DNA of 63,657 nucleotides, the filler included, from Reclinomonas americana ATCC 50394 (taxonomy: Eukaryota), in NCBI GenBank assembly GCA_048213135.1. It is 5 parts of 4 records of this genome, joined end to end, with 100 filler letters (N's around TTAATTAATTAA, not from the genome) between each part and the next. Parts side by side here need not be neighbours in the genome. Positions count along the whole stretch, not along the records: positions 1 to 24,375 come from PS015063.1; positions 24,476 to 37,739 come from PS015064.1; positions 37,840 to 57,444 come from PS015064.1; positions 57,545 to 62,351 come from PS015066.1; 1 more part is not named here. One strand, given 5' to 3'. This document shows, piece after piece, positions 8,201 through 62,336 of the stretch. A model generated the notes under the pieces. That model was not told where the DNA came from and did no database searches. It worked only from the letters and a program-made list of their open reading frames with translations. Position numbers and translations under genes: made by a program. Position 1 is the stretch's first letter. Every line of letters begins with the position of its first letter.

Positions 8201-11200
8201 GAAGCAAAAGATGAAGCAAGTAGACAGAAACGGATTCAAGCAGTCAGCTCCATGCTCGCCTCCTCCTACATCACTTTCTGCTCCTTCTCCCTCCTTCCCC
8301 CTCGTTCCTTCCCCTTCTCCCTCACCTCTCGCCCCACTGCGAATACCCAGGGAGACACTGGCCACACATTGGCGACGCCGGATCTCGGTTGGAGCCCGGT
8401 GTGCACAACTGGGAGGAGCGCGACGGCAGGATGCCCAACGTGGAGAACGAGCGTGTGGAGAATAATGACGTAGTGTTGCCGATATTCACCTACAAGCGCG
8501 CGCAATTGAGGGATCGACGCACACTCTCACCGCTTCAACAGTTGCACTCACCGGTGCCGCCTGGCAGTAATCGTACGGGCAAAGCACGGGGATAATGTCA
8601 CCAGAGACAGACACTGCCGGCCAGTAGTTACTGGCCACGAGGACGTCGTCGCCACCGTTGCAGACCAAGTGGTTCGGACATTGCAGACAGGCTCCAGAGG
8701 ATGGAAGCACCGAGTACTCGTCCACAGCGCACACACTACGGGAGAGACATGAGCAATCAAATGAACGAATCACGTGGAAACACACAAGAGACTCACCGAC
8801 AGTCGGAGGTCGGCGTGAGCATGCCGGAGCCCGGCGGACACGGGGCACGCGGCAGCGTGACAATCGACGACTGGGAGGGGATGGATCGCGAACTGCATAG
8901 ACGAGTGCACGATGAGAGGTGCGAGGAGCTGCATCGCCATCCAATGTATAGAGAGTCACCTGGCCACGATATCCAAAGACGAGTACTGTCCGGTGGGGAT
9001 CACCACCGTGCCCACGATCTCGCCGTGCGAACTCGTGAACAACTGCGCCGACTCGGTGCAATTGGAGCAACGCAAGTCGATCTCGCTCGGAAACAGTGCA
9101 AATGTGTTGATCGGTTGGCCGAACAAGTCCAGAACCTGCAATAGCGATACAGGGTGTCAGCATGCTGACAATCATGAAAAAATATGTGGAAGTTAACACG
9201 CACCGTGGTGTGCACTTCGGCCTGCTGCCCGGGGTACACTGCCAGCAGCTGAACCGTCGTATTCGTGGCGTCAAACAGGCGCGGCGGACTGAGCTGATAC
9301 GGCACCGTGGCAACGTAGGGTCCGTAAGAGGCTGCCGACGGCATGAAGCAGGCGCTCCATTGCGTCGGTGTGCCAGTGATGCATCGATAGTCAGCGGTGA
9401 CCATGATTTCAGGCATGAGCATGCACGCCGTTTGTGCCGCTGCCAGTTGCGGCAACGACATGTCGAGGAAAACGGCACCTGCAATGCACGCACACGGAGA
9501 GAGAGAGAGAGAGAGAGAGATGAGGCGACGACAAAGATACTCAGTATAAATAAAACACGGTGATGAACCTCCGCCACCGGCGCCAATGAGACTGCCTTGT
9601 GGCACATTTGCCAAGTTTGTGGCAGTGTTGGCGTAAAACATCACACCATCCATATGCGAGGCTAAGCAAAGCGATGTGTCATCCGAGGAAGGTGCAGCGA
9701 TCAAGAACATTGCACTAAAGGAGGGGGGAGAGGGAAACCGTGAGAAAAGAGTTACATAATCTCGTTCACATTGAGATGTTCTCTCTCTGTGCGTGTGCCA
9801 CACGCAGGTGGATAAAAAAAGCAGCTCGGACGCATGAAGACGCTCTGACTAATGCGCGACGCAAGGTGGGGGAGGCATAAGAACGAAGAAACCAGAAGAA
9901 GCAGCTCATTCTCATAAAAATGCTCGCATTCTCTCAACACATGCGCGTCGAAAAGAACGGAGGGAAATGCACGTGCGAACAAGTGCCAAGTATGCGAGAG
10001 ATATTCTCACGAGCAAGTTCGAACTCTTGCACAAGCCCAGACGACGAAACTGTGCCCCTGACACACACATTTCTCTCTCTCTCTCTCCTCTCCCTCTTCC
10101 CCCTCCCTCCCCCTCCCTCTGTCTCCGGTACGCAACCCGCCACGAAGTGCCGCATTGCCGTCGAAAGTGGAGGACTGGATGTTGAGCGACGCCAGCGGGG
10201 AGGTCAGGTACGCTCGCAGACCACCACCATCGCCACCCAACGCCACATTGCCAATGACGTGCACGTTGGACAGGCTGCACTCGGAACCGAGTGCGCAGTC
10301 GAAACAGCCGACATCGCCTGCCGACGAGTGCCCCGTGAACCAGCCACTGTGCAGCAGACAAATGTGGTCATCAGTGGATACCGACACAAAAATTGGGAGT
10401 TTCCCTCTCCACCCTTCTGAGAGACAAACCCTTGCACAACAAGCGAACTCTGCTCCTGGAAGGTGACGCACGCGGCGGAGCCGGCGGTTCCTCGCGTAAA
10501 ATTGCTCTGAAACATGGACACCACAGACTGGCCTTGCGCATAGATTCCCGCCGCGGCGCCGGTGGCTGTGTTGTCGGCAAAGAGCGAGGAGATGACATAG
10601 ACAACGCCTCCGTCGTACGCGGTCATCACGGCTCCAGTGTAGGCCGTGTTGTACTGACACACCGTGCTGTTGAGCAGCAAGACAGAGGTGTCTTGCAACA
10701 CAACGACTGCATGTGACGTCGAGAGAGAGACGCGCGTCAGCATGAAGGATCATATATCGATCGTGGGAACAAGCTGTTCGTCACGCACCACCACCCGAGG
10801 CAGCCTTGTTGTGTGTCATGGTCACATTCTTGAAGACAAAGTAGCTGTTCTCGCGTGATAGTGCCACGCCACCGTTGCGGCCGGCAGTGGAATTCGTGAT
10901 AGTCGAATCAATCACCTCCACACCCGACTCGCCGAGACCATACAGCGTGCCACCTGCACCGCAGAAATAACAGCGGGAATTGCATGAGAGTATGACAGGG
11001 AGAACACAAGAACCAAGACGCAAGAGCTGACCATGCATGGTGGCGCTCTGTGACAACATGAACGAGTCGGTAATGGTGATAATGCTCTGACCCGAAACGC
11101 CCAGACAGCCACCAAGGAGACTCGTGCTGCGCAGGCAAAGTCGATGACAATCAGACTGATAAGGACAGCTTCCTTCTCGTGCACGATGCGCGTCGCAACT

Positions 11201-37739: not shown

Positions 37740-37783
37740 NNNNNNNNNNNNNNNNNNNNNNNNNNNNNNNNNNNNNNNNNNNN

Positions 37784-37795
37784 TTAATTAATTAA
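37784..37795. other. Artificial scaffold linker TTAATTAATTAA
   Basis: Same 12-mer within Ns. Confidence 0.97.
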
Positions 37796-38700
37796 NNNNN
37801 NNNNNNNNNNNNNNNNNNNNNNNNNNNNNNNNNNNNNNNTTGTGTTCTCACTAGTGTGCCACACCGCATGTAGTATCGTCGGAAGAGCCGACGCCTGGCA
37901 AATCATCGACCAGACTGGGGCCCAAGACAACAATTGCAACCACACCGGTTCCGCTGTCATCATACTCCCCATCGGCTGTTGCATTGCTGGCCAGTGAGCT
38001 CCCACTGCTGCCACCCCTTCCCAGCCCGCTTCCTCGTGATCGTGGCGGGGCACGGTGGCCACTGGCACGTTGGGAAGAGGATGAGTCGGACAGATCTACG
38101 CCGTGCATGATCGTGCCACCATTACCGCCGCGTTTCGCTAGTCTCCCACCGCTGCCGAGTCGACGCCCAACCATCACAGCAGCCATGGCAGCGCCGCCGA
38201 CGGTAACTACTCTGCCTGCAGCGGTGCACATCCACGGTGAGACGGTCGCGGGTCGTTCATCGGCACGCGAACACGTGGACGACGACAACGCACGTGCACG
38301 ATCACGGCACCGACATGTGCTTTCGCTTCCACCAGTGCCGCTGCCGCCGAGGAGGCTGTTGTTGGAGAGACCAAAAGCAGGCACTTCTCGACTCGATGAC
38401 GACAAGTAATGATAATGTAATAATGCAAAGAAGATGACTGGCGTTGCATGACACTCTGCTGGTCAAGTTTGCAAGGTGGTGGCGTTTGCATCCAGACGAC
38501 GTCGAGAACAGTCTCTTTATCGAGTCAGTTGTCGATTTCGGTGCCGACTTCATGACATGTTGCACCGTCGACGATCGCATCTGCATGGAGCCGGAAACCT
38601 CACCACAGCATTTACAACATCGTACGTGATATAGGACGGGCCCTCTCTTCCGTCCAAAATATCAATCACAGCTAATCACGTTTTTAGCTGTTTTTTTCGC

Positions 38701-39060: not shown

Positions 39061-40416
39061 GAGAGAGGAGGAGAGAGAGAGNNNNNNNNNNNNNNNNNNN
39101 NNNNNNNNNNNNNNNNNNNNNNNNNNNNNNNNNNNNNNNNNNNNNNNNNNNNNNNNNNNNNNNNNNNNNNNNNNNNNNNNNNNNNNNNNNNNNNNNNNNN
39201 NNNNNNNNNNNNNNNNNNNNNNNNNNNNNNNNNNNNNNNNNNNNNNNNNNNNNNNNNNNNNNNNNNNNNNNNNNNNNNNNNNNNNNNNNNNNNNNNNNNN
39301 NNNNNNNNNNNNNNNNNNNNNNNNNNNNNNNNNNNNNNNNNNNNNNNNNNNNNNNNNNNNNNNNNNNNNNNNNNNNNNNNNNNNNNNNNNNNNNNNNNNN
39401 NNNNNNNNNNNNNNNNNNNNNNNNNNNNNNNNNNNNNNNNNNNNNNNNNNNNNNNNNNNNNNNNNNGAGAGAGAGAGAGTACGCAAGAGTGGGAAGAGAG
39501 AAGGAAGAGGCGATCATGCGTGAGGGAGGAAAGATCAGAAAGGAGAAGAAGTGACACACGCGCGCATACACACCCTGCACTTGCCTCACTGCATGCATTC
39601 ACTGACAACTCAGCCGCATGCTTTTCTCTCTCGTTCTTCTCCCTTTCTTTCTCTGTTATTGTTGTTGTTCTTGTTCTTGTTTTTCTTATTGTTCTTGTTG
39701 TTCTTGTTGTTGAGAGAGACAACTGACTCGATATCTCTCCCACCATCTCCCTCCCTCCTCCCTTCTTCCTCTCTTGCCAGTCGATGTCATTCCTCAACCA
39801 CACCGCCGTCACTGACTTCACCAACCGCCTCCGGCGCATTCAATTCGAGCACGTTGACGTGGCGGTGCTCTTCTACTGGCGCAGCGCAGTCAATCGCTTC
39901 TCGTGGACCTACATGGAGGAGACTGTTGCGCGAAGCACCCACTCATCCCACCCCCCACACACACTCAGCACACTCACCGCAGGGGAGGGTCGCTTTTGTT
40001 TGCAGATGATACCGGAGTTGGAAAGAGTCAACATCCCCATTCAGTTTGTGGTGGGGGTGATCGCGGGTGATCGTGATCCCGACATGCAGGATGCCGACGA
40101 AGACGACGATTTGCTGGCGTGGTGCAAGGCCGTCGATCGGTGGGATCCACCAGCGATGAAGGTGCGCGGAAGTCGGCCTCCACATCAGCGCCACTTGCAG
40201 ATGCACCCGCGCGATCCAAAGTCGATCGAGGCGGTGTATGACGCGATCTTCGCGGATGTGAAGCTGCTGAAGGAGGCCGGTGCGAAACGGGCGTCGAAGC
40301 AGTGGAAAGATGGCGGGCTGCCGCCGGCGCTGGGAGGACGGCGCGCAGCAGCAGCGCCAGCGAACGAAATCGACTATGGTACACCACGCAAGCTGCACCG
40401 CTGTGCGATCTTGTAA
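38701..40416 (+). CDS. Highly divergent Rho-like small GTPase (probable pseudo-GTPase) with C-terminal CaaL motif
   Basis: Four exons. FTNRLRRIQFEHVDVAVLFY..FSWTYMEETMIPELERVNIPIQFVVG parallels Rho YDRLRPLSYPQTDVFL..SFENVxxKWxPEVxHxxPxxPIILVG. IEAVYDAI matches the terminal helix. Ends RKLHRCAIL*. Confidence 0.6.
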
Positions 40417-44619: not shown

Positions 44620-45093
44620 TCAGTTGTCGCTGGCATACATAATGGCATCGATGCGCACAATCAATGCCGTCTCCTCCACCGCACCTTGTGGCGCGTCGCT
44701 CAGTAGCACCAGTCCCTGCAAGCGGCGCGACTTGTTGTTGACTATGAAAACGGCCTTCAAGCCGCTCTCCGACACGCCACTGCTGGCACGAGTCAGCGCA
44801 CACGTTCTTCTTCGTGACGGGAAATGACCCACACGCAACGGAATGGCATTGCCGATTGACGCCACCATGGCTGTGCCGCCCACCACACGCGCCTGCTCAC
44901 TCAACGATCCCTCGGCACCCTGCAACTCAATGGTCAACATGGATCGTCTGGACCCAGCTTGCCATCTGCCTGCTTTCCCTCTCGCCTCCCTCATTCAACC
45001 ACTCTCTCATTTGATCGCTCTCGTCTCTTGTCAGCGTTTCTTGACCTCTCCCTGTGTCTGCCTGTCTTTGCGTTTCACTACCAACCTTCTATC

Positions 45094-45125: not shown

Positions 45126-48100
45126 TGTTGATCGNNNNNNNNNNNNNNNNNNNNGCCTTCACTCGTACCGCACCCTTCCTTCTATTGTCTCTCTCTCTCT
45201 CTCTCTCTCACACTCTCTCTCTCTCTCTCTCTCTATGTTGATCCATTTGCTCTCCAACCATACCCCAGTCAGTCGCTCATCACACTTCTTCTCAGTCTCG
45301 CGCTCAGTGCCGCTTTTCCTTGTCCGGCCTCATCCACAGAAACTCTCTTCCATTCGCCATTCCTCTAGCACTCTCCGTACACTCGTCCTCGTAGTGTTTC
45401 TTTGTTCTCGGCTCCCACCCAATCTCAAGTCCCTGCCTCTCCTTGTTTCTACCATGTCCCTCTCTTCGTATCTGTTTGTTGCCTTCTTGCGTGCACCGTA
45501 CCTCACCCTTCTCCGCTGATCTCTCTCTCCCTCTCTTCCCCCCTCCCTTCCCCTTACCCCTTTCCCCCTTTTACCCCTTCCCCCTTTCTCCCCTTTCTCC
45601 CCCTTCTCCCCCTTTCTCAACATACGGCCGCGGGGGGCGCAACACGACCTCCCCCCTCTCCCGAATCACCCGCGCCACCGCATCCATCGCCGTCGCCGTC
45701 TCCACCAGCGGCTGAAACTCGCCAAACACTCTCTGAAATCGCTCCGCCGGCATCTCCACCACCCGCGAGCTCCCATTCGGCATGGTCGCATGCAGCTCCA
45801 CTGTGCCCCACATTAGCCAGCACGCAAGGAAAGAGCTGTCTGTGGTCGACAAACACACACACAAACCATCGGCCAGCAGCACCTGCGCGCCACTCTTTGG
45901 TCGCGTGGGCACTGTGAGATTGAGGCTCTTTGGCAGCACTCCATTGCCGCCAGCCAGCACACTAGAGACGGCCACAAAGACAGGCTCCGGGTCGCGACTA
46001 CCACGCGAGTTGATGCGCACAATCGATGCAAAGGGCGTCTTCTTGTTGCTGCTGCCCATCACATTCATGCGCAAGAGACCGTGATAGGGTCCCGGTGGAG
46101 AGGCCGTAGGCAGTGTGCTCTCAAACTCCAGAGTCCACACAGGCTCGTTGGACCAGTGCAGCAGCGCGCGCACGGTTTCGTTGGCATCGGAGACCACTGC
46201 ATGCCTGTTGCCGATGAGAATGTGAGGCAAAACAAAACGTAAGCAAGCATGCATGCTCACACGCACAGTGCAAGTGGCACACTGGCGGCGATGGCAGCGA
46301 CAGCTGTCAGCGATTGGCGCCACCACAACATCGGAAGGAAAGAGTATGAAGGACAGGACGGTTCATTCATTGTCGCCCTGCAGTCTCTCGAAGTGCGGTC
46401 GGTCGCGAGGCCAGTGGCGACGAGGCGCCACGGGAGAGCAACGAAGAGGAGGGACCGGAGTTGGGCGTGATAAGTGGAGCCTTGCTTAATGGCGCCACGG
46501 TGGAGAGCGGTGGTGGCATGTCGCGATACGAGTGCAGGCGGTAGGTGGGTGCCACGGGTGCGGGCATGCGCGAGGGCACGAGCACGGACAGCGGTGCGTG
46601 ACTGCTGTTGACGGTGGTGGTCACCACGGGCGTGCTGCGCGGAAGTGGCGTGGCGAGAGGCGTGGAGGCGGTGGCCGGTCCGCCTCGCATCGATGCCGTG
46701 CTGCTCGTGTTGCTGGTGACGGAGAGCGGCGACAGTGGCAACGCAATGTTGGCAGGTGGCGCAATCGGTCCGGGGGTGACGTTGGACTTGTACAGGCGCT
46801 GAAGGATGCGACGCATGCCGGCCACCCACTTGGCGTAGTCCTCTGCCGTGGTGGCGAAGAGGGCCAGCGACTCGGACGACACGTCGGCAATTAGCGCAAA
46901 GCCGTACTCGTGCAGATCCACCGGTCCCATCGACTTCTCCTTGTCGGACAGGTCGGGAATGAGGCCAATGATTTTGACAGAGCGACGGACGTTGCGGCGG
47001 TGCGAGCCCCATTTGATGTAGCCGTCGCGCGTGGCCTGCGAGAGACAATGAGCGACAATCAACAGGACTCGGATGTCGACATGTGCCACACCTGCACGTA
47101 GCGTCGGTGCGCTGCACGACCCCATCGCCGCCGGATGCACTTGAACAGGTACGTTCCCTCACACACAAACAGCTCCTCCTCGGTCGGCATGTCCTCTCTG
47201 CATGTGGTCGGTCAACAACACGACGCCTTCGCAACCCTTCCCACCTCCGCAACGCAACGGACTGAGGGGCATGAGCGCCGTCCCTGAAGGCGACGACGCT
47301 CCACCGACGCCGGCTGGCTGCAAGCCGAGTGTAGGCATGCCTCGGAAGCCGTCGTCTTGACCATTTGAAAAATTGCCTGTGGCGTACTCTGGCGCACCGC
47401 CATTCGGATGCGGTGGCGTGACGAGTCGCTGCGGAAACTCCTACCAGCAGCGGTGAGCAATAAAATAGGACAAGACTCACTTGGGTGGCGATGGAGGCTG
47501 CACCTGCGGCGTGTTGGCGTTGCTCGGCAACTCGCCGTCGTCATCGAAATCGCCCAGTGGCAGCTTGCCGTCGGTGGCCTCACGCACACGCAGCACATCT
47601 GTAGTTTCGCGTGAGCTTTTTCTCGTTGCACACTCGCGCGGAGAGTGAGAGGCACGCACTAAAGTAATTCACGCGGCCCTGAAGAGCCGCCAGCAACTTG
47701 TTCCGATCGTGCGCCGACACGGCAAACTTGTAGTCGTGGTCGTTGGCGTACCGCAGCACCACCGTCGACGAATCGCGCACATCAAACTCAAACCCACTAA
47801 CGTCCTCGTATCGGTGCTGCGAGAAGAGCCGCAGCGACCCGCGATCCACGTGCCGAATGGTCGACTGCCCGAGATACAAGACTGCGGATCGCGTGGTCAG
47901 TCGACGATCGATCCACGACGAGTAGGATGGCGACGCACGATGCGCGTGTAACCGTCCGTGCCAATCGACGCCCTGCACCGAGAACTCAAACAAACACGCG
48001 TCCTCGGCCGACTGCGGCGGTGACAGGAGCGGATCGGACGAGGTGGCCAGCATCGATGTCGGAGTGCTCACGCGCGCCAGTCGATGCAACAGCCAGCTGA

Positions 48101-48770
48101 CAATCTCATCGCGTTCCTCGGACAAGTAGATGCGCTGCGGAGGGAGGAGGAGGAGGCGGCGATCGCTGAGTCGCCACAGGCAGCAGGAGAGAGCGATCAC
48201 AACACACAGACGCACTGCGGTTCCATCGACTGCCGACACGATGCGAAAGAGGTGTTCCGTGCGCGCATCGACACTGACACGCGCGACATCGACCAGCAAA
48301 ACGCGCGCAGCCAGCTCACCAGTGAACGGATCGAGGTCGAGAACATCCGAGTCGCGAAGAACCATCACTGATTGTGTGAGTGAGCACGCGTCCGATGTCG
48401 TATCAAGTCAAGAGAGTGAGCAAAACGCAACATCGAGTCAGCACTGCGCCTGATGACGTATACCGGAACACCGGCCACGACACTGCCGCACCCGACATCA
48501 GCTGTTGCTCTCTCACAAAGACACACACAAAGACGCACACTGGAGGAATTTTCGCACGAGCGGTGACTCTTTCATCGAAACGAGCCCGCGCTTTTCTGTG
48601 GAGCATGAGCACTCCACTGAGTCCTTCGCTTCTCCCGCCTGTTGCGCTGCTGCCAACGGCCACCTCCAGCATGCAAGTGACGCTCATTTGTCGTCCTCTG
48701 ATCTCCGCGGATGAGACCACTGTCAGTGGCGATGGTGCAGGCATTGGCGACAAGTACGGACTGGCCTTGT
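44620..48770 (-). CDS. Multi-PH-like domain protein; start uncertain
   Basis: Three PH-like segments ending in helices: IYLSEERDEIVSWL, YKFAVSAHDRNKLLAAL and SLALFATTAEDYAKWVAGMRRIL. S/T/P-rich linker and beta-rich C-terminal region. Confidence 0.65.
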
Positions 48771-48905: not shown

Positions 48906-51900
48906 TCGTCGGGGCGACGTGAGGTTGGTTGGTCGTCGGCACCAGGGCCGCGGTGAGTGTTGAGTGTGAGTGCGTGGCAACATCAGCGCGGGAAATTCCA
49001 TCTGAATGCGATGCAGCTATGGTCACACGTGCATTGCGCGACCGGATGGACGTGCGGTGCTGTTTGGAGGCTTTGGATTGCATACGGCGACCAGTACAGT
49101 CGCTGGTAACACGGATGGTTTGCGTGCGAGCTGCTGCGGGCATCAATCGGCGTTGTTGTTGCAGGCAATGACTCTTCTTCNNNNNNNNNNNNNNNNNNNN
49201 NNNNNNNNNNNNNNNNNNNNNNNNNNNNNNNNNNNNNNNNNNNNNNNNNNNNNNNNNNNNNNNNNNNNNNNNNNNNNNNNNNNNNNNNNNNNNNNNNNNN
49301 NNNNNNNNNNNNNNNNNNNNNNNNNNNNNNNNNNNNNNNNNNNNNNNNNNNNNNNNNNNNNNNNNNNNNNNNNNNNNNNNNNNNNNNNNNNNNNNNNNNN
49401 NNNNNNNNNNNNNNNNNNNNNNNNNNNNNNNNNNNNNNNNNNNNNNNNNNNNNNNNNNNNNNNNNNNNNNNNNNNNNNNNNNNNNNNNNNNNNNNNNNNN
49501 NNNNNNNNNNNNNNNNNNNNNNNNNNNNNNNNNNNNNNNNNNNNNNNNNNNNNNNNNNNNNNNNNNNNNNNNNNNNNCTCTCTTGCTCTCCCAACCCTAC
49601 TCACCCAAGTTCATCACGTAGCCATCGCTAAAAGTGCCACGATGATCGGCACCGCCCCACACAAACATCTCCGACGCACTAATCATCACACTCGTGTGAT
49701 CGCGACGCGGCTGCGGGTGGTCGCCCGCAAACTCGATCTTGCTCCACTCCCACGTGCCTGTGACCGAGCAGAGCGTCACGCAACCCGCATGACACGACGC
49801 ACGAAAAAGAGACGCGTCACGCGCAACTCAAGTCCAACGCATACGTGCTGTCGGTCATTGTGACCAGCTGGCCACCACCAAACACCACCATGCGATTGCC
49901 GTGGTACACTGCCGTGTGACCGGAACGCGCCGACGGACGCGTCCCTCCACACGACATCTCTGTCCACGTAGTCGCGCCCAAGTTGGAGACCCACACATCG
50001 CCAAGCCATCGCGGCTCGTCTGCAGGAGCAANNNNNNNNNNNNNNNNNNNNNNNNNNNNNNNNNNNNNNNNNNNNNNNNNNNNNNNNNNNNNNNNNNNNN
50101 NNNNNNNNNNNNNNNNNNNNNNNNNNNNNNNNNNNNNNNNNNNNNNNNNNNNNNNNNNNNNNNNNNNNNNNNNNNNNNNNNNNNNNNNNNNNNNNNNNNN
50201 NNNNNNNNNNNNNNNNNNNNNNNNNNNNNNNNNNNNNNNNNNNNNNNNNNNNNNNNNNNNNNNNNNNNNNNNNNNNNNNNNNNNNNNNNNNNNNNNNNNN
50301 NNNNNNNNNNNNNNNNNNNNNNNNNNNNNNNNNNNNNNNNNNCAAGAGAGAGAGACAGGGAGACAGAGAGACAGAGAGAAAGAGACGGAGAGAGAGAGAG
50401 AGAGAGAGCAAGAGACAGAGAGAGGGAGAGCGAGAGAGAGAACAAGAGACGGAGAGAGGGAGAGATTGAGAGAGAGAGAGAGAGAGCAAGAGAGAGCCTT
50501 CTTCACCATTGGTGCCTCATCTTGAGGGATGCAAACAGACTTGTTGACGTGTCGGCGAGTGGATTTCCTCGGCGCCCTGCCTCGAGCCCGCCGCTTGCAC
50601 GCTGCCGTGCTGCTCGGGAATCGCTCTGTGCTGCTGCACGGTGGCATCTCGCAGGCCGAGCGTGTGCTGGACGACGCCTTTGTGTTTAACCTGAGTTGTG
50701 TGCCGCGCGTTGCATGTCGGTGATTGGCTGAGGCACGCACGTGCTCACATGCGTGCAGGTAACAATACGTGCAAGGAAGTGGAGCTGGCGGGATGTGTGG
50801 TCGGCGGTCGCTGCGGTCATTCGTTTGTGCGCCTGAGTGACCAGTCGGCGCTGATGCTGGGTGGCAAGGACACCACGACCTACAATGACGCCTACGTGCT
50901 TCGTCTTGGTGAGCAGCCACACTCTGGGAGATGCAACATGTCTGTCACTTTTGTGACACGCAGCCACGGGGTCATACAGGAAAGAGAGAAAGAGAATCTC
51001 CTTCACCAAGCACACCCGTTGTGCCTGTCCATTTTCGCTCTTTCACTCTCCGCGCACCCATTCCCCCTCACTCGTTCCCTTTGCGCCAACAGAAACGAGA
51101 GAGTCTTCTTCTCAAAAGCGCACTCTTTCCGACTGTCAGTTTCGCTCATTTACGCCACCATCTTACCTTCTTCCTCCCTCATTCACGCTCCTCTCATCCC
51201 TTCCCCCTCAATCATTCACGCCACTCTCCCTTCCTACACGCATACAGATAGCGAGAGAGCAAAGCACACTCTTTCCGACTGTCTGTTTCGCTCAATCGCA
51301 CCCCTCTCTTCTCTTCTTCCTCACCCTGCGCCACTCTCATTCCTTTTTCCTACACGCATGCAGGGAGCGAGACAGATCCTCCTTCTCCAAAGAACACTCT
51401 TTCCGACCGCCAGTCTCGCTCCCCCGCGCTCTTCTCATCCCTTGCCCTTACTCATTAACGCTCGTCTCACCCCATTCCCCCTTTGCTCATTCGCTCATTC
51501 ACGCCCCTCTCTTCCTTTTTCTCTTCAATCAGTCACGCCCTTCTCTCCCTTTCCATTCACACTTGCAGAGAGCGAGAGAGAATATCCTTCTCCAAAGTAC
51601 ACTATTTCCGACGCTCTTCTCATCCCTTTCCACTCATTCACGCCCTTCCCATCCCTTTTCCCTCCGCCTTCCTCCACCCCTTTCCCCCCTGTTTTCCCCC
51701 TCTCCCTCACCCCCCTTCCCCTTCTCCCTTCCCCAGAGGAGCTGGCGTGGATACGACCCGACATTCAAGGCCTGCTGCCGGAGCGATCGTGCCATTCACT
51801 GTGCAAGATCACCAAGCGCGGTGGGTGGCTGATCATCATGTTTTTCCACATGCTCCACGCACAGCTGAGCTTTCGTGCGCAGACATTGGGGGCACGGTGG

Positions 51901-54719
51901 ATGGAATCCTGTTTTTCGGCGGGCACAGTGTGGCCGAGACTCCCATGGGTGACGCGTATTTCCTGGAACTGCCCAACACGCTGCGCAACTCGCCACATGC
52001 CAAATCGCTGGCAGAGGGGACGTCGGGGTCAGTGCTCATCCTAGACAATCGTTGCGAGGGCACACACTAACGTCTCCACACAGCTATTACCGCGGTCCGC
52101 CCACACGTCCGTCGCCGCAACCGCCCAGCAGTGGCTCCGGACGCAGCAACATCAGCACCACTGACACCGCGACTGGCGGCGGCCCACCACCGTCGCCTAC
52201 ACGTCCGCGCTTGCAGCCGAATCCGTTCCAACCGTCGCCAGAGGAGCTGAGATCGCTCCGGCAGGCTCAGGAAATGGAGCGCGAGGAGAGACGCGCACCG
52301 TACGAGACGCTGAGCGACAGCAGCGCCTGGCGCACCAAGTCACCTGCAGTGGGCGAGGAGTCGGGCGCCACGCGTCACTCGTGGTACGATCCGCAGGTGA
52401 AGCGCCTGGAGATGTCGGAGCGCCGACTGGACGACGATCGTCGCATGCTCAGCAAATCACCCGCTCCAGTGTCGTCATTTTCGTCATCGAGCACTCCGGG
52501 AAATGGGCAGTCATCGTCGGCCTTGTCACGGTTCGGTGCGGACCGATGGGATGACACCATGAGCACGCTGCGCACGCTGCTGGCCAACCCCGACGGTCGT
52601 TCCTACGATGCCGGTGTTCGTGTGGAAGGGTGCGCTTTCAATGAGGGTGGTTTCTTGCAGACACTGCGGCTCACTGATTGTTGCAGGGCGAGTGGTGGTG
52701 CCACTGACTACGGATCACTGTCGAGGTACTTTGCTGCGTGTCTCGCTGCCAGAATCGTAGAGATGCTGACCATAGCGCGCTTCTCGCGGCAGCAGCAATG
52801 GCGCCACACCAGCAACGCAGACAACGCTGCTGTCTAGCCAGTCCAAGTTGCATTTTTTCCATGGATTCCTTGCCTGTGTGCGTCCCTTGACCCACCCTCT
52901 GTAATCCATGCAGTGCACCAGGTCTCTCGGCATCGGCCCTCGGCTCGACTCCTGCCCGGGAGCCGTTTAGGTACGGTGATCGAGGTTTGTCTCTCTCGGA
53001 TGGGGAAGGGATGACTGACATGTTTTTGCTGTCATGATCCAGGAGTACCATCAACACACCACAGGCGGCAGCGAATCGTAGTCGGTGAGCATTTCATTCG
53101 GTCATCCCCCCTTGCTTCTTTCATTGCATCCTCACACAAGCACCGCAGAGCGGAGGAGATCTCCGACCAGTATCGGTAAGAACTGATGAGATTGTTGTTG
53201 CTCGCACGCACACTGACGTTCTCTTGATTAGATCGCCATTTTCCTCCATGGGCTACCAATCGCCGTTGACGCTCGGGTACAGCGCCGAGTACGTCGCCTT
53301 ATTTTTCTCCCACGTGAAAAGTGGATACTTACCACTCGTTGACACTGCAGTCGGGAGGACGGGGATTCGCGGCGAAACGACGAACTGTTTACTCGTTCGG
53401 TCGCTGCGCAGTTGCGACAGGATGGCGAGCCACGCGCTCTCTTTGCCGAACCGGTGCCCGCACGGCCACTGAACCGACCACCATCGTCTGGCAATGGCGG
53501 CCGGCCACCCGCTCCCGACGACAGGTGCGAGCTGGCGCAACATGCCACACAAGTGTGTGTGTGCTGATATTTTTTGTGACCGTTGTGCAGTGAGCGGTGG
53601 CGAGCGGCCGCTGCTGATTTTAGTGCTGCTGCTGGTGGTGGTAGTGGTAGCGGAAGGAGTACTCCGCAGGAGAGCAACGGACCGTCGTTGTACCGCCTGA
53701 ATCCTCATCCGGATGTCACTCGGGCGTCGTTTGTGGGAATCGGCGCGCAGTCGACCCCGACGCAGTACACACGTGTGCATCTCGGCTCGATGCGCGAGGT
53801 TCCTGAAGTCAAGACGCCGCTCGATGTGTTCTCGCAAGTGTTTGCGTCACCGCGCGACACGCCGACGCGTCAGCCGCCACCAGTGGCACCCGCCGCCGCT
53901 GCCGCCGCCGCCGCCGCCTCCTCCATGTCTGCGCTGACCAATGTCAACTCCCCTCGTCGGCAGGTGCACTTTGCGCCCGAGGAAGGATCGCGGCAGCAAG
54001 TCCCGGCATCGCAGCAGCTCGTCGGTGCGGCCACGCCACCGCCACAGTCGTCCTTCGGCGCCAGAGGTCCAATCTACACACCGCCACTGGAGCGTCTGCG
54101 CGAGTTGCAGCAGGGCTCCACCAACGCTGCGTCGACTGGCCTGTCGCCAGCCTTTACCGAACGAGGTTTGCTTGCTTGCTCCTGTCATTCATCTTTTTCT
54201 TCCCCTTGTGCCTCAATCGCTGGCAGTCGATCGTTTCGGTCGGTACACGTCCACGGAGACGTACACACCACAGTCGTCCAGCATGAATCGTGCGCTGGAG
54301 ACTGTGCAGAGTCGCGATCCGATTGCGCCCATTAATGTTTCCGACTCGGTCGCGGTGCTGGTCCACACGGCCGGTCGCGAGGCCATGTGGCCGCCCGAGT
54401 TGCAGGATCAAGTCCTCGGCGTGTTGCACGAGAATGTTGCGCGCGCACATCCTCATGACAGCATCCACGCCAGTCGCTCACACCACCGTGTACGCTTGAA
54501 CAGGGCATTTATGTGATTCGCATGCTGATGCGCTTCTTTGACGAGCTCGAAATCATGGGCCTAAAGAGGCCCATTGTACGCATGCTTCAGCTGACCCTCC
54601 GTGGCCACTTGCCACTGGCTGGTGCGTATGGATCCACACGCGCACACACCGCGTTCTTGACAGCTCATCGCTTGCACACAGAACGCGACGCTTTTGCCTC
54701 GGTGCTGCAAGGCAGATGA
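48906..54719 (+). CDS. Kelch beta-propeller protein with long low-complexity region and possible C-terminal SAM-like domain; could be two genes
   Basis: Kelch blades PRYGHT..VLFGG, ARSGHT..VVFGG, PRRDHT..FVWGG, ARRLHA..LLHGG, GRCGHS..LMLGG, ERSCHS..LFFGG. Two of these blades lie on a reversed contig (49578-50031). The end VLHEN|GIYVIRML..DELEIMGLK is weakly SAM-like. Confidence 0.7.
51090..51620. repeat. Degenerate intronic tandem repeat, 4 copies
   Basis: GAGAGA..CACTCTTTCCGAC near 51121, 51267 and 51395, with a variant near 51600. Confidence 0.65.
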
Positions 54720-54868: not shown

Positions 54869-57178
54869 ATGCATTCGACAGCAGAGAGAACCGAGTTCGA
54901 TTACATTGTGGTCGGGGCCGGCTCGAGTGGCTGTGTGGTCGCAGAGAAGCTCTCTCGCAGTGAGACCGCACGAGTGTTGTTGCTGGAGGCTGGTGCGTCT
55001 CTCTGAGAATGTCACAGAGAGAAGAGTGGAGAGAGAGACTGATTGCATGCATGCAGGATGTGATGCGATGCCTGCGCATCTCGGCGAACCTCGCAAGTGG
55101 CCACTGGCTGCGTACTCGGCCTGCGACTGGCAACTACGTACAGTCGCACAGGCGCATTGTGGGAACCGGAGAGTGGCCATGTTGCAGGGCAAGGTGTGCA
55201 TGTCTATATGAGTGGAAGAGCGAGAGTGAGCGAGAGACTGATTGCCCGCGATCAAGGGAGTCGGTGGTGGCTCGGCAGTGAATGCCATGCTGTGGTTAGT
55301 GCCGCCGGCCAGTGACTTTCAGGCGTGGAATGTGGCCAGCTTGTCGGCGGAGAGAATGGAGCAGCATTTCGCACGAGTGGAGGTTGGTTTGTGCTCTGCT
55401 CTGGCTGTGATCGCATTGACACCAGCAGTGTGTGGCTTATATGCTGTGTATGTACGTGCAGCATGTCATGTTTGGCAGCGACGGTCCACCAGTCGTTCGC
55501 GACGATGATTGCTTCGTGAAGGCGTTCATGGAGGGCAGCTGCGTTGTGCATCTCTCCAGCGGTTTCCCATCGCAGGCTGCTGACTTGTGCGGTTACAGGC
55601 GTTCGCGCTGGTCTCGGGCGAGTGGAGGCAGCAGCACGGACACGATCGGGGCACACGTCGTTGGTCGGGGCGGCAGTCGAGTCGGTCGCTGGCAAGTGGC
55701 GGAGGCGATCCCCCTTCGATGCCTTTGTGCGTCCGGTGCTGGGTCGACGCTCCACACTGGAGCTGCGGTGCGGGGTCACAGTTAGGCGATTGTTGCTGAG
55801 TCGACGGGATGAGGACGGCGCTGTGATGTGCGAGGGCGTTGAGGTGGAGAGCGATGGTGTGCTGGAGGTCATTCGTTGCAATCGCGAAGTCGTGCTGTGC
55901 GCCGGAGCTATTCAATCACCCGCCGTTTCGTGAGCGCGAGGAGTGTGCTCATCATGGCAGCAGCTGCTTACATGCCGCACACAGATTCTGCTGCGATCTG
56001 GCGTCGGGCCTGTGGAGGAGTTGACTCGTGCCAGTGTGCACGTGTTTGTGGATCAACCGCAAGTCGGTCGCAACCTGTCGGACCACCTCGCCTTCCCCGT
56101 GATGAATCTACACAGCAAGCGCAGCCAGCACGATGGTAGGGTGAAGAGGAAGAACAAAGGCAACTCGCGCGCTTCGCTCGTCTCACACGCTGCCGCAGCT
56201 CCGCACGATTTCTCCGTCACCAGTCTGCCAGTGACGCGGCAGGGTGTGCAGGGGCAGGTGCTGGCCATGAACGGCGGCCGCGTGACTCCGTTTCTGTTGC
56301 CGTTCATCCTGATTGAGGCTGTGGCATCCATGCTGCTCGGGTGGTTTCCGCTGCTGCTGCGCTGTTTTTGCTCGATCATGTCGTGGTGCCTGTCAACGCG
56401 TCTCTACAGCTGGTTCGGCGACCTCCTACAGTACCTGCTCTGCTCTCGCGTCTCCGGCTACCTCGTCGTTCTGGTGCAGCCGTTCTCGCGTGGCGCTGTT
56501 CGGCTGAGGCACGACAAGCAAATCGACATTGACCCGGCGTACCTCTCCGACGAACGAGGTCTGCTCCACTTGGGGGAGGGGTGGGTGTACACAATGTTTG
56601 ACGATCGCGATCACTGCATGCAGACATCGAGGCGGTGTGTGAGCTAACGCAACACGTGCTGCGATTGCGCGAACGTGCGGCGGAGGCCTATGGCCGAGCA
56701 TTTGGCGCTCTGCTCAATCTATTACCGGGCTCGCTCGTCGCCATGCGACCACACGCGCTGCGCACCATGATCCAGCTCTCATGTCTCACCATGTTGCGTG
56801 GCCGTCGGCCTTGAGTTTCAACGTGGTGAGCGCAATGTGCTGATTTTCATGTTGCCTTTAGTTTCCACCCCACGGGAACATGTTGCGTCGCGTGTATGTG
56901 TCGCAGGGGGTTGTGGCGGCTGACAGATGTGAGCTACACAGGTGCGATGCGAGCGGTGGTCGACGAGGACTTCGCCGTGCTGGTACGTCTGCATTAGCGC
57001 AACGTACGCCTTCAAGAAAAGCTGACCGTGAGTGTTTTCCCTCTCGTCGCAGGGTGTGCGTGGTGTGCGCGTCGCCGATGCCTCAATCATGCCGCGGCCA
57101 GTGTCCGTCAACCCCAACGCCGCATGTCTGGCCATTGGCGACGCCGCCGCCGATGCTATCATCGCGCAACATCAATAA
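54869..57178 (+). CDS. GMC (glucose-methanol-choline) oxidoreductase
   Basis: [109 protein letters not shown]. Confidence 0.95.
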
Positions 57179-57419: not shown

Positions 57420-57488
57420 CTACAACAAGAGTGAGTGCGCAGGGNNNNNNNNNNNNNNNNNNNNNNNNNNNNNNNNNNNNNNNNNNNN

Positions 57489-57500
57489 TTAATTAATTAA
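57489..57500. other. Artificial scaffold linker TTAATTAATTAA
   Basis: Same 12-mer within Ns. Confidence 0.97.
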
Positions 57501-57556
57501 NNNNNNNNNNNNNNNNNNNNNNNNNNNNNNNNNNNNNNNNNNNNAGAGAGAGGCAC

Positions 57557-58208: not shown

Positions 58209-58643
58209 ATGAGACCGTCGACCTCTGCCGTGCACCTCCTTCTGGCGCTTCTCATTGCTTGCATTGCGCTACTTGCCTTCACCGCAAATGCATCAGAAGC
58301 GTGCGTAACACACAAAGAGAGAGAGAGAGGGAAAGGAGAGACACGCACGTGCATGCACAGAGAGCATGAGAGAGAGAGAGAGAGAGAGAGAGCACATAGC
58401 ACGACTCGCCTTGCACTCTCTCACACTCTCTCACTCACTTTGCACTGTCTCTCTCTCTCTTCTCGCTCACTCGCATTCTCTCTCACTTCCTCTGTTCTTT
58501 CTCACACTCACTTTGCACTCACCTTCCTTCACTTAAACACTCATTATCCCTCACTTTGCACACACTTCCTCTCTCACACTCACTTGCACTCACATTCCCT
58601 CACTTTGCAACTCTCCCTGTTTCTCACTCTCTCTCCCTCCTCT

Positions 58644-58694: not shown

Positions 58695-61106
58695 CAGTGA
58701 AGACGATGCGGAGCTGTCTGTGACGCTGAGCAACGCGCCACTTGCGGCCAGTGACAAGGCCGCCAATGCGCTTCCGCAGTGGAGTGATGAGGAGTCGCAG
58801 CAGCAGGAGAGCGACGAGCAGGAGCAAGAGTGGATGGAGGAGCAAGATGAGGGCGAGGAGGAGGAGGAAGAAGAGGAGGACGAGGACAGTGGCGAGTTGA
58901 ATGAGTTGTTGGTGGGTTGTTGGTGGAGGGCGGAGGCAGGGGAAGGAGAGGGGGAGATAGGGGAGGATCGACAACGTGTTTGCAAGGTGGACAGGGCAAC
59001 CCTCTTCTCTCTCTCTCTGTCGCACCGCACTGGGCTGTGGTCACAGAAAGGCACGGTGGACATTGCAGTGTTCACATCACGTGCTGTTGTCAAGAGGGAG
59101 GTTGACGATGTGTTTGCAAGTGGGACAAGTCAATTCTCTCCTCTCGCACTGCAGCGAGCCGTAGTCTCAGAGGCAGAGAGGGTGGAGAAGACAGTTGTGG
59201 AGAGGGTTGACGAAGTTCTTTGCTCGTGGACAAGTCACCTACGAGTCTCTCTCGCCCTGCTGCAAGCTGTAGTCACGCAGGAAGAGAGGGTGGAAAAGAT
59301 AGTTGTGGAGAGCTGACGAAGTGTTTGCTTCTTCTCTCGCACTGCTGTGAGTTGTCGTTTCAGAGGAGGGAGAGAGCAGGTTGTGGACAGGGAGGGTGGG
59401 AGGATGTCTCTGTGTATTGCGAGTCAACCCTGCGTGACTACAGTTCGCTGCAGTCAGTGAGAGAGCGAATACAGAGTGCAACTTGTCCATCTTCCACCTC
59501 TCTCTTGACAACTCATAATAGGTGTCGTGAACACCGCCTTGCGTAACCTCCCTTCTCGTGAGACTGCGGCAGTGCGAGAGAGAAGAGGAAGAGCGTGGGC
59601 AGGGCAGTGCTCACGACATGTGCTGTTAGTTGTCAAGAGGGAGGCTGACGATGTGTCTTGCGACAAGTCAACCCGCTCCTCTCGCACTGCTGTGAGTTGT
59701 GGTCTCAGTGGAAGAAAGGGTATGCACGACTGTGAGTTGTGCAGAGTGCGGGCTTACTCGCTCCACTCTTGATCGAGTTGAGGTCTGCAGCGAGTTGTAG
59801 TCGCACAGGAAGAGAGTGTGGACGGTGCGGTGTTGGCGAAACGTGCGAGATGGACTGCAGAATGCTTCCGACTTGATATTGAGGTGTTTAGCGAGGTGGA
59901 CATGTCATCTCGCACTGCAGCGAGCTGTTGGCTGGGGTTATTAGAGGGTGGACAAGGCAGTGCTCACAACCCGTGCCTTGAGTTGAAGACTTTTGGATGA
60001 CACATGGACGAGAGTCACACGCCCTTCCTGGCGTGGATGAGTTCTGCAGCAAGTTTAGAGGGAGAAACGAAAGTGGGAAGGACTGTGTGAGCGTAACAGA
60101 AACGGTAATACCCGTGTTGCGTGAGATTCCTTCCTGTCCTTCTCTTCTCTGTTCTCGTCTCTGCGTTTCTCTCTTCGCAATGATTGTCAGTGCTGTCTCT
60201 TCTCTTCTCGTGTTCTCTTCGCCACTCTTCTCGCCGCTCCGTTTCTCTCCTCGCTGCATTCGTCGGCGTTGCATCTCAATTTCTCGTTTTTCTGTTTGCC
60301 TCTCCTCACTCCCAACTTCCAGGTTCTCTCCCTGCCTGACTTCAGCGTTGCCTCTCGCCTCTCTCCTCACTCTCCGTTTTACTCTTGCAATTCCTCTCAT
60401 CTCTTTTCTGTTTGCAATCCTTCTCCCTCAGTCTCTTCCGTCCTTCTAGCACGCCATCACTCAGTACTCCGTTTGCCCGTCAGCCACCTTCTTTTTCTCA
60501 CACACGAACCTTCCCTCTCTCTCCCTTCCCCCTCCCTTCCCCCCACCCCAGCTCCAGCTCGACGAACTGGAAAGCTCCCTCGACGACGACATGGACGACC
60601 AGCAGGACGAAGAGGAGGAGGAGGCCTCCGCCGAGGCCGAGTCCACCAACATCAAGCGCCTCACCCCGCGCACCTTCCGCCCCACCGTCGTCAACAACAA
60701 CAAGCTGGTGCTGGTCCTGTTCTACATGCCGAGTTACGGCGTCGTCGTCGTTGCTGCCCCTGCTGCAGTGACGTGAGCTCACCCCCGTGTCGCGCACACA
60801 CACAGCCTGCCCGCACTGCCAGAACTTCATGCCCACCTACAACCGCCTCGGCCGCATGCTTAGCGAGATGGACGGCGTGGTGCTCACCAAGGCATGTCGA
60901 TGACGTGCATCTGTTTTTCATTGTTGCGTGCCCACTCACGATCGAAACAGATGGACATTTCGCAGTACGAACCCCCAGTGGACGGCGTCGACTCGGTGCC
61001 GACACTCGTGGCCTTCCCGCCCAGTGACAAGTCGCGCGCGGTGGAATACCAAGGCGACCGCACTCTGGCCGACTTGCGTCAGTTTATCGCGCAACACAAG
61101 GAGTGA
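58209..61106 (+). CDS. Secreted PDI-like single thioredoxin-domain protein with acidic N-terminal region
   Basis: Signal peptide, poly-E/D tract, IKRLTPRTF..LVLVLFYMPTCPHCQNFMPTY..VVLTKMD..VDSVPTLVAF..EYQGDRTLADLRQFI. Confidence 0.88.
58960..60000. repeat. Degenerate satellite (direct and inverted copies) in a 1.6-kb intron
   Basis: CTCTCGCACTGC..GAG(T/C)TGT..AGAGAGGGTGGA and GTTGTCAAGAGGGAGG.TGACGATGTGT recur. Confidence 0.7.
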
Positions 61107-61249
61107 GAGAGACCATGGTTCAAAAGAAAAGCCGCTCCCTAAGAGAAAGAGAGCGAGTTGTTGTGTAAACAGGCTAAAACATGGGGGAAAAAAGGCAGGG
61201 ACCAAGTCGTTTTCATTCTCGTTAAACCTACGCAGCCGAGTGGGGGTTT

Positions 61250-61927
61250 TTAGCTGGGCAGCTGTAGCCAGTACTGCCGATTTTGCATCAGCTGCGCCAT
61301 CCACGGTTCCAGAGCCGGTGACAAGCTGACGAGGGCCTCGAACAGCGGTGTGGCCATGTGGTCGATGAAGCCGAGCTGGCTGGCGCGGCGGCCGACCTGC
61401 GGGGGGAAGGAGAGGTCAAAAGGGGAAGGGATTCTTGTGCGAAGCTCCTCTTCCCTTTCTACTGCTGACTCTGGCAGCGTCTCCTCTTCTTGCCGCATCG
61501 ATTCTACATGAGTGCATTGATCTGTAGTAGCAGCTACTTCGTGCGCACAGCGTCTATAATTGTTGCTTTGAGCAGACTCTCGGGAGCAAGACCCAGCCTC
61601 TTCTCTCTCTCTCTCACACACACACCGCTTGTCCGTCCGTCTGCATGCGTGACTGCGTCTAACTCTCTCTCTTTCTCCTTCTCTGTCTGCTGCGCACTCG
61701 GACAGTCTCCTCCTTTTCTTGTCGTATCGCTTCTCTGTCTTCACTGCCACAGGCAGTCCTCTTCTTGCCGCATCGATTCTACTGAAGTGTATCGATCTGC
61801 AGCATTTGCTGTTCTTGTGATGCACTCGGCGTGTGGCGTGCAGACTCTCGAGAGCAAGACGCGGCTTATTCTCTCATTCTCTCTCTGCCTGTCTTTGCGG
61901 CTGTGTGTCTACATGCGTAATTGTCTG

Positions 61928-61968
<41 letters not shown>

Positions 61969-62336
61969 ATTTTCCCTCCTCCCCTCCTTCCCTTTTTAAC
62001 CACGCAACTGTCTGATGTCTGTCGAGCATCTGCGGCACGGTCATCCCGAGCTGCCGCTGCATGTCTCCCTCATTCCAAAACTCCTCCTCCACGCGGTGCG
62101 ACCACTCCAGGTGCAAGTGGAGTGGCTTGGTCGGGTGCGAAATGTCGGCGCCCTTTAGCAACAGCTTGAGGGCCAGCATGCGACTCCGATCGGTCGACAG
62201 CATCTCCGTGAGGGCGGTCTTGCCGCGCTGCTGCAGCTCGGTGACCTCGGAGCGCAGCTCCTCGACCAGCTCGCGGTGGTGCGCCATGTCGGTGGCCAGC
62301 ACGAGATCGAGAATGGTTTTGCGGAAGCGCTTCCAT
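61250..62336 (-). CDS. Class I cyclic-nucleotide phosphodiesterase, 3' exons
   Basis: LVLATDMAHH, LLKGADISHPTK..W..RVEEEFWNEGD, MLDR..SQLGFIDH..PLF..NRQYW. Confidence 0.95.

Follow-up and report, generated by a model that had tools for sequence, protein, structure and literature searches.

Introns that begin with GTTGCG, or with another hexamer of the form GTTNCG, very probably make up a genuine second class of 5' splice site (donor) in the stretch of Reclinomonas americana ATCC 50394 DNA analysed here, a window of 63,657 bases joined from parts of the genome assembly GCA_048213135.1. Almost universally, donor recognition is believed to depend on a single, highly conserved arm of U1 small nuclear RNA (snRNA). 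In this window, the GTTNCG class accounts for about 12-23% of the predicted introns (one in eight to one in four), and for about 40% of the introns that follow an exon ending in A, C or T. On the computational evidence presented below, the class is a credible observation, while the mechanism by which it is recognized is less settled. The statement as a whole, in which a genuine second donor class is read in a displaced register by an arm other than the textbook one, may in our judgment be right or wrong with about equal chances.

GTTGCG Is the Commonest Predicted Donor

Introns were predicted with a dynamic-programming parser that combined codon log-odds, an acceptor matrix and an intron-length prior, with the two strands run separately. 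All of these terms were self-trained on the window, GT was the sole donor rule, GT...AG boundaries were imposed, and the last exon base (position -1) entered no part of the model. This donor-blind parse returned 152 predicted introns and 16 kept gene models. A refined parse, in which a donor term learned from the parse itself was added to the donor-blind model, returned 139 predicted introns and 18 gene models.

GTTGCG occurs 77 times on the two strands of the window, compared with a mean of 29 copies per hexamer. It is the commonest donor of the donor-blind parse, opening 16 of the 152 introns where 1.53 were expected from its share among all GT hexamers (about 10-fold; binomial p = 5e-12), and the runners-up are GTGCGT (12), GTTTGT (6) and GTGAGT (6). 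In the refined parse, the leading hexamers are GTTGCG (25), GTGCGT (21), GTGAGT (10), GTTTCG (7), GTCAGT (6), GTTTGT (6) and GTACGT (5). When the same model was run on the reversed sequence, 31 introns were called, no hexamer opened more than 2 of them, and GTTNCG was not seen at all (0).

The original prediction, made by hand-splicing, had named 22 donors of this kind, and the hexamer claimed is present at all 22, at the position and on the strand given. Nineteen of them are GTTGCG, and the others are the variants GTTACG (60733), GTTTCG (55925) and GTTGTG (50695). The donor-blind parse recovered 11 of the 19 GTTGCG sites and two of the three variants, and the refined parse recovered 15 of the 19 and again two variants. 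The claim that GTTGCG is an abundant donor class is borne out by the enrichment in the donor-blind parse, by the reversed control and by the continuity of conserved domains across the junctions.

Donor Class and the Last Exon Base

It had also been claimed that these donors follow exons that do not end in G, and this is upheld at the 22 sites, which are preceded by T (11), A (9) or C (2) and in no case by G. Among introns of up to 130 nucleotides (nt) in the donor-blind parse, -1G precedes 0 of 18 GTTNCG donors and 29 of 38 ordinary donors of the form GTNNGT (p = 2e-8). In the refined parse, with introns of all lengths, the corresponding figures are 1 of 32 and 39 of 57 (p = 3e-10). Since counts within a large repeat-protein gene of the window are not independent, the contrast was also computed outside that gene, where it stands at 0 of 14 against 17 of 30 in the refined parse (p = 2e-4) and at 0 of 8 against 12 of 17 in the donor-blind parse (p = 0.0016).

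Sorting the donor-blind introns by nothing but the -1 base also brings out the two classes: after G, the most frequent bases from +3 to +6 are G, C, G and T (consensus GTGCGT), and after any other base they are T, G, C and G (consensus GTTGCG). At junctions backed by homology, -1G is found in 0 of 7 donors of the unusual class and in 6 of 6 ordinary donors (Fisher p = 6e-4, computed by hand), the latter being those at 819, 1608, 1758, 2749 and 2946 in a myotubularin gene and at 56983 in a GMC oxidoreductase gene. The ordinary donors that had been listed for this DNA (GTGCGT, GTACGT, GTGAGT and GTTTGT) do carry G at +5 and mostly G at -1, as does GTCAGT, with T at +6 too. Within the ordinary donors, no significant dependence of +4C on the -1 base, as a seesaw between exonic and intronic positions would give, was found (p = 0.2).

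A possible exception to the -1 pattern is G/GTTGCG at 10136 (-), where the slash marks the cut; it opens a doubtful intron of 422 nt. The sole well-anchored copy of GTTGCG after a G lies at 2620 (+), within a myotubularin exon, and because this stretch is covered by the conserved Pfam profile (positions 196-255), the copy is apparently not used as a donor.

Conserved Domains Across the Junctions

Conserved domains continue across seven junctions of the unusual class, all of them in predicted U2-type GT-AG introns, and the reading frames are restored in both parses. In the GMC oxidoreductase gene, a splice reading TI/FHPTGT/CAM had been proposed, which passes through a micro-exon of 20 nt whose two flanking donors are both GTTGCG. 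With the micro-exon included, the product reads ...CLTIFHPTGTCAMRAVVD..., and its TIFHPTGT is aligned to TIFHPVGT of the bacterial GMC protein P0002, as proposed; the local alignment score against P0002 is 133 with the micro-exon and 105 without it. At the GTTTCG intron of the same gene (55925), the upstream exon ends at position 195 of the GMC_oxred_N profile and the downstream exon takes the profile up again at position 196 with its residue 1, and a tblastn search with P0002 over this junction matched the GMC product to GAIGTPHLLQLSGVGP.

The blades of two Kelch genes give similar support to the original prediction, with positions 1-36 of the Kelch_4 profile ending on the last residue before the donor at both 49827 and 50695. 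In these genes, the next Kelch_4 unit begins 16 residues into the following exon. The two genes are divergently oriented. Each has an unusual-class intron directly behind position 36 of the profile, which suggests that they are probably paralogues in which the intron has been retained.

In a thioredoxin-like gene, the proposed junction MP-T/CPHC is likewise found: the exon upstream of 60733 ends in ...LVLVLFYMP, and the exon after it opens with CPHC at position 30 of the Thioredoxin profile, the profile match being weak (E = 0.066). The next intron of this gene (60861-60960, +; donor near 60892) probably has a GC start, at AAG/GCATGT. The GC donor keeps ...DGVVLTK/MDISQYE..., and the GT donor chosen by the parser, 60880, loses VLTK. 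GC-AG introns may thus be present in this DNA, and the parser is unable to call GC donors.

For the cyclic-nucleotide phosphodiesterase (PDE) gene, the proposed junction stands in part. The PDEase_I profile covers positions 98-203 before the intron that opens at 62008 and continues from about 203/204 after it, which supports an intron at this place, but near-equal alternative donors lie beside the one proposed.

Strength of the Evidence

Several points weigh against the class or against its proposed mechanism. The introns were predicted ab initio with self-training on 63 kb, the support being computational throughout, and of the 139 refined-parse donors, 50 fall outside both classes, many of them being probably wrong calls. 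Five of the 22 listed sites were missed by the refined parse (13547, 39925, 43656, 56882 and 60733), among which 56882 and 60733 have homology support. Nine sense copies of GTTGCG lie inside predicted exons, and the hexamer alone is therefore not sufficient for donor use. In the repeat-protein gene, many introns occupy homologous positions from one repeat to the next, which is what makes the counts there non-independent. At the PDE junction, the spliced alignment with P0003 scores 221 for the donor at 62008, compared with 220 for 62003 and 214 for 62000 with other acceptors, these alternatives being 5 and 8 nt away. The absence of -1G is also marginal relative to the plain sequence background, in which G precedes 8 of 58 non-donor copies of GTTGCG and 16% of all GTT; the solid fact is thus the missing preference for -1G and not a strong avoidance of it. 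With regard to mechanism, the duplex energies reported below were computed leaving out pseudouridines and the U1 proteins, and no snRNA gene was found in the 63,657-base window at the gathering score or at E <= 0.5.

According to one rival account, hand-splicing and the parser have produced the class as an artefact, with the real donors at neighbouring GTs or with some of the supposed introns unspliced. The junctions are indeed known from computation alone, a learned donor term is self-reinforcing, and in-frame alternative GTs lie near several sites (13547/13532, 17913/17892 and 62008/62003). We nevertheless regard an artefact as improbable: the parse that is blind to donors already puts GTTGCG first (p = 5e-12), the reversed-sequence control is clean, conserved domains fix or support seven junctions, and the -1 base separates the classes although it is absent from every model.

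Intron Type

The predicted GTTNCG introns are ordinary short U2-type GT-AG introns with a different start. When the 27 short GTTNCG introns are set beside the 46 short GTNNGT introns, the median length is 70 nt in both groups. A branch-like CTNAY motif, mostly CTCAC, is present in 17 of 27 and 36 of 46, at a median distance of 23 and 19.5 nt from the intron end, and C is found at -3 (a CAG end) in 25 of 27 and 41 of 46. No internal k-mers that discriminate the 27 short GTTNCG introns survive correction for multiple testing. CGCAAC, the complement of GTTGCG, is found within the final 30 nt in 3 of 27 GTTNCG introns and in none of the 87 others (p = 0.012); the three that carry it start at 5760 (-), 21001 (-) and 26710 (+). 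Pairing between the two ends of an intron was considered and rejected, as own ends pair no better than swapped partners.

A U12-type reading was also rejected: the 27 short GTTNCG introns contain neither a /RTATCCTT donor nor a TCCTTRAY branch site. U12-type introns resemble the present class in that their donors, too, form a second class, one whose rigid consensus lies within the intron and which shows no preference for -1G. Unlike them, the GTTNCG introns match the ordinary introns of the window in length and in their branch-like motif (CTCAC and the like, about 20 nt from the end). Four copies of RTATCCTT are present in the window (2046, 29509, 31359 and 51582, all +), with no convincing upstream frame or branch site; the copy at 31359 sits in a TC-rich repeat.

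The abundance of the class might also be due to copying, either of one ancestral intron that was multiplied along with repeats or of an inserted intron family that carries GTTGCG. The repeat-protein gene does hold about half of the cases, often within an FxxN motif or directly behind one. However, 11 GTTGCG donors belong to other genes, and the -1 contrast persists there. An introner family was rejected for want of likeness between intron bodies: mean shared 7-mers amount to 0.36 within the GTTNCG class, no higher than the 0.38 between this class and the ordinary introns, and to 0.41 within the latter. Copying thus appears highly improbable.

Register and Pairing With U1

GTTGCG had been described as GTGCG displaced by one base, and this description holds in part. 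T is found at +7 in 17 of 32 GTTNCG donors and in 12 of 57 ordinary donors (p = 0.004), an enrichment that is expected if GCGT lies one base deeper into the intron. In addition, +4 is mostly G, resembling +3 of the main class, and -1G is missing; G at +6 is true by definition of the class. What does not fit is a plain displaced copy, since +5 is far tighter than such a copy would be. At +5, the 21 donor-blind GTTNNG donors have 18 C, 3 T and no A, whereas the 38 ordinary donors have 14 C, 11 T, 10 A and 3 G at their equivalent +4 (p = 4e-4 for C and p = 0.01 for A).

Duplex stability was computed against the standard U1 arm, given as AUACUUACCUG by Tan et al. (PMC4856993), by taking the best helix over all registers and permitting bulges. 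The mean best duplex is -1.0 kcal/mol for GTTNCG donors, -5.6 for GTNNGT donors and -2.9 for 1497 random GT sites, and the GTTNCG duplexes are worse than those of random GT sites (p = 8e-6). The displaced register did not yield a clearly better helix than the canonical one in this comparison, which covers the standard arm only. The poor helix with the standard arm and the strict +5C together suggest that the U1 partner is probably not the textbook arm, and for the same two reasons the analogy that had been drawn to human GUUAAG-type donors, as read by a standard U1, is not supported in the form proposed. On these calculations, it is unlikely that a textbook U1 reads the GTTNCG class unaided. 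A rider of the original prediction, by which a variant U1 or U6 snRNA or altered recognition might be involved, accordingly looks necessary rather than optional.

To compare possible partners, 1024 U1 arms in which positions 4-8 were varied were scored by the donors that fall below the 10th percentile of random GT sites. By this measure, the standard arm captures 0% of the GTTNCG donors and 48% of the ordinary donors. The best arm for ordinary donors is ...ACGUACC..., with 59% of these and 4% of GTTNCG. The GTTNCG class is captured solely by ...ACG(C/U)AAC... arms, which take in 78% of its donors.

In the reading that we favour, the spliceosome would read the intronic G-C-G-(T) one nucleotide farther from the cut than in G/GTGCGT, with +1G occupying the usual place of -1G, which amounts to a register displaced by one base. 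The partner would be a lineage-specific arm or a second U1 variant that is approximately complementary to GUUGCGU, similar to 5'-ACGCAAC-3'. We consider the displaced-register logic to be evenly poised between right and wrong, and the involvement of an altered or extra snRNA arm to have at most the same chance and perhaps a slightly smaller one. More tentatively still, two donor-recognition systems may coexist in the major spliceosome, with the usual U1 arm serving G/GTNNGT and a second U1 or altered arm (about 5'-ACGCAAC-3') serving H/GTTGCG(T). With two such systems, and just as tentatively, the last exon base would decide which of them an intron can use.

The main rival to a displaced register is a dedicated second U1-like snRNA, whose arm would be the straight complement of GUUGCGU and would pair in normal geometry with nothing shifted. 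This would account for a rigid +3 to +6 motif without an exonic part, as in U12-type donors. It also agrees with the standard arm pairing less well with the class than with random GT sites, and with ...ACG(C/U)AAC... arms alone separating the class from random GT sites. In addition, Roy and Bowser (bioRxiv 10.1101/2022.06.08.495308) report that in Entamoeba and Mastigamoeba the U1 arm has changed along with the donors. On the other side, the window contains no detectable snRNA gene, and the +7T and the likeness to a displaced GTGCGT are equally well explained by one arm in a displaced register. It also counts against a second U1 that we know of no cell described as using two U1 specificities for a fifth of its introns. 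Taken together, a dedicated second U1 is possible but doubtful.

A further alternative is a standard or near-standard U1 that bulges out one U at +2/+3, as in G-U-(U)-G-C-G-U. Deletion of one U does convert GTTGCGT into GTGCGT, the commonest ordinary donor, and registers with a bulge at +2/+3 are proven for some human sites (PMC4856993), which, like the class, have consecutive U at +2/+3 ahead of an otherwise ordinary donor tail. In the bulge register, however, -1 is still opposite C9 and the -1G:C9 pair is retained, so that G should be favoured at a position where it is seen in 1 of 32 donors of the class. Moreover, the duplex computation that allows bulges yields no stable helix, and the strict +5C is left unexplained. 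The missing -1G thus fits a shifted register, in which +1G replaces -1G, better than a bulged U, and we consider the bulge unlikely.

Comparison With Known Systems

A 'seesaw' compensation between exonic and intronic donor positions was reportedly described by Burge and Karlin in 1997 and by Carmel et al. in 2004. The present case is similar in that loss of -1G accompanies a stricter intronic part. It differs in that the compensation takes the form of a different, displaced hexamer and not of a better match in one register. In a search of open-access full text, neither a GTTGCG/GUUGCG donor class (matches being primer-type or unrelated) nor a pair of GT donor classes that occur side by side and depend on the last exon base was found.

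Shifted and bulged U1 registers are established in humans, where all noncanonical registers amount to about 1.5-2% of sites (PMC4856993). Displaced registers are not known other than as such rare human exceptions. The shifted-register sites compared here are those of Roca and Krainer (2009), in the account given by Tan et al. (2016; PMC4856993). As that account has it, these sites have much in common with GTTNCG donors: the cut is at GT, the element that pairs with U1 lies one base deeper, with G at +6 and U at +7, and the exon need not end in G, an example being the test oligonucleotide ACA/GUCAAGUAUA (PMC4856993). The two differ in their share, which is 12-23% of the predicted introns here for GTTNCG. 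They also differ in pairing, since the human shifted sites form a good helix with the standard U1 (-6.5 kcal/mol in the table of PMC4856993) and GTTGCG reaches -1.0. In addition, GTTGCG requires C, not A, opposite U1 nucleotide 5, unlike the human shifted sites.

Donors that are unfit for the textbook U1 are likewise found in Archamoebae. According to Roy and Bowser (bioRxiv 10.1101/2022.06.08.495308), the Entamoeba U1 sequence AACAAAC matches GUUUGUU and the Mastigamoeba U1 sequence ACGUAC matches +4C, while Thecamonas and Mamiellales keep the standard U1 arm despite +4C. An arm of the Mastigamoeba type, ...ACGUACC..., is the one that tops our scan for the ordinary donors of the window (59%, compared with 48% for the standard arm). 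The same ACGUAC arm fails for GTTNCG, bringing 4% of these donors under the 10th percentile set by random sites. The preference reported for Mastigamoeba is GUGCGC, whereas GTGCGT leads here by 21 to 2. Archamoebae, moreover, are described as having one transformed consensus, and here two classes coexist that are tied to the last exon base. The diplonemid donors, reported as (G)/GTATG (PMC12621601), follow a pattern that differs from GTTGCG.

Genes and Other Introns of the Window

The window has a G+C content of 53% and 20 runs of N, and it is densely packed with genes that contain many short introns. Genes were identified with a Pfam profile scan that covered stop-free open reading frames and predicted exons (Table 1). 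Homologue searches with exons of three of these families gave very different numbers of matches: two for the GMC exon, both bacterial; one for the PDE exon, at 38% identity; and thousands for the WD40 exon, all of them generic WD40 arrays.

The minus strand from about 4 to 23.6 kb (3988-23598) is occupied by the repeat-protein gene, in the form of one or two giant genes with GGA(I/L/V)Y and FxxN repeats followed by membrane-like segments. We take these motifs to be reminiscent of chlamydial Pmp-type repeats. A HMMER search of 1.84 billion representative proteins with a 390-residue exon of the repeat protein gave no real homologue (3 matches, best E = 6e-4). Pfam was empty in the exons and open reading frames of this gene that were scanned, the exon scan covering exons outside the repeat region at 10-19.8 kb. 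In this gene, GG/A is often split by ordinary introns, and FxxN often contains, or is directly followed by, a GTTGCG intron. The FxxN repeats had been cited in the original prediction, and two of its introns, with donors at 11980 and 17913, do split such motifs (Table 1). Across the window, four further GTTGCG calls that are new in the refined parse (10136, 15952, 42444 and 40950) are doubtful, with introns of 300-422 nt.

Some features of the window concern the DNA itself. Four pairs of 44-base N runs, with 12 bases between the members of a pair, are found at 24376-24475, 37740-37839, 57445-57544 and 62352-62451, and larger N gaps (147-769 bases) lie beside them, which resembles a pattern of assembly or masking and not biology. 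Tracts of (GA)n/(TC)n and (GT)n are plentiful across the window, with TCTCTC occurring 623 times and GTGTGT 231 times. A low-complexity segment at 58355-58495 has weak sub-threshold Rfam matches to plant microRNA precursors and to a Leishmania Hsp83 3' untranslated region element, most likely due to the low complexity.

Table 1. Genes, predicted introns and candidate sites in the window. The last column gives the standing of a site in the original prediction where it bears on the entry.
Feature	Position	Strand	Gene or setting	Basis or remark	Original prediction
Myotubularin phosphatase gene	~600-3200	+		Pfam	
WD40 arrays	25054-25785 and 33145-34230	+		Pfam	
Kelch gene, first	~49.6-50.0 kb (49600-50029)	-		Pfam	
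Kelch gene, second	~50.5-51.0 kb (50526-50970)	+		Pfam	
GMC oxidoreductase gene	54869 to ~57180	+		Pfam	
Thioredoxin-like gene	~60.5-61.1 kb	+		Pfam	
Class-I cyclic-nucleotide phosphodiesterase (PDE) gene	~61.25-62.9 kb	-		Pfam	
GTTGCG intron, 69 nt	56793..56861	+	GMC gene, upstream of micro-exon	Product ...CLTIFHPTGTCAM... aligned to P0002	
Micro-exon, 20 nt, encodes (I)FHPTGT(C)	56862..56881	+	GMC gene	Flanks TTTAG/ and /GTTGCG	
GTTGCG intron, 60 nt	56882..56941	+	GMC gene	Alignment; both ab initio parses skipped the micro-exon	
GTTTCG intron, 60 nt	55925..55984	+	GMC gene	GMC_oxred_N profile and tblastn	
GTTGCG intron, 70 nt	49758..49827	-	First Kelch gene	Kelch_4 profile; donor-blind parse	
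GTTGTG intron, 64 nt	50695..50758	+	Second Kelch gene, identical place in Kelch unit	Donor-blind parse	
GTTACG intron, 73 nt	60733..60805	+	Thioredoxin-like gene	Both parses chose donor 60750 instead	
GTTGCG intron, 612 nt	61397..62008	-	PDE gene	PDEase_I profile and spliced alignment	
Reference ordinary intron, G/GTGCGG	2749..2820	+	Myotubularin gene	Splits active-site motif CSDGWDR/T	
GTTGCG intron	13665..13735	-	Repeat-protein gene	Donor-blind parse	
GTTGCG intron candidate	13474..13547	-		Both parses prefer in-frame GT 13532 (GTTATA), 15 nt downstream, common acceptor	Listed
GTTGCG intron	12556..12630	-	Repeat-protein gene	Donor-blind parse	
GTTGCG intron splitting F-T-S-N	11907..11980	-		Donor-blind parse	
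GTTGCG intron	11127..11199	-	Repeat-protein gene	Donor-blind parse	
GTTGCG intron splitting F-T-G-N	17834..17913	-		Refined parse only; donor-blind parse used 17892	
GTTGCG intron	15956..16026	-		Refined parse only; neighbouring 15952 call doubtful	
GTTGCG intron	15334..15397	-		Donor-blind parse	
GTTGCG intron	20933..21001	-		Donor-blind parse	Probable
GTTGCG intron, 100 nt	27646..27745	+		Donor-blind parse	
GTTGCG intron	28773..28836	+		Donor-blind parse	
GTTGCG intron	48368..48431	-		Refined parse only	
GTTGCG intron	54436..54503	+	Gene upstream of GMC	Donor-blind parse	
GTTGCG intron candidate	39925..40005	+		Open frames on both sides; no gene model kept by either parse	Listed
GTTGCG candidate site	43656	-		Motif present; no gene model covers site	Probable
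GTTGCG intron	7197..7266	-		Donor-blind parse	Additional
GTTGCG intron	6024..6093	-		Donor-blind parse	Additional
GTTGCG intron	44780..44839	-		Donor-blind parse	Additional
GTTGCG intron	47198..47258	-		Donor-blind parse	Additional
GTTGCG intron	5795..5858	-		Refined parse only	Additional
GTTGCG intron	5687..5760	-		Refined parse only	Additional
GTTTCG intron	18313..18390	-		Both parses	
GTTTCG intron	7032..7115	-		Both parses, acceptor not the same	

Implications

A practical consequence is that gene finders with a single donor matrix will mis-call exon ends in such DNA, as can be seen in the 20-nt GMC micro-exon that the parser missed. If the proposed reading is true, a displaced hexamer that is unfriendly to U1 would serve up to a quarter of the introns of a lineage, and a displaced register or a second U1 specificity could become a main route of donor recognition. 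The GTTNCG introns would then offer a natural system for how the cut site is set when the pairing element lies one base off.

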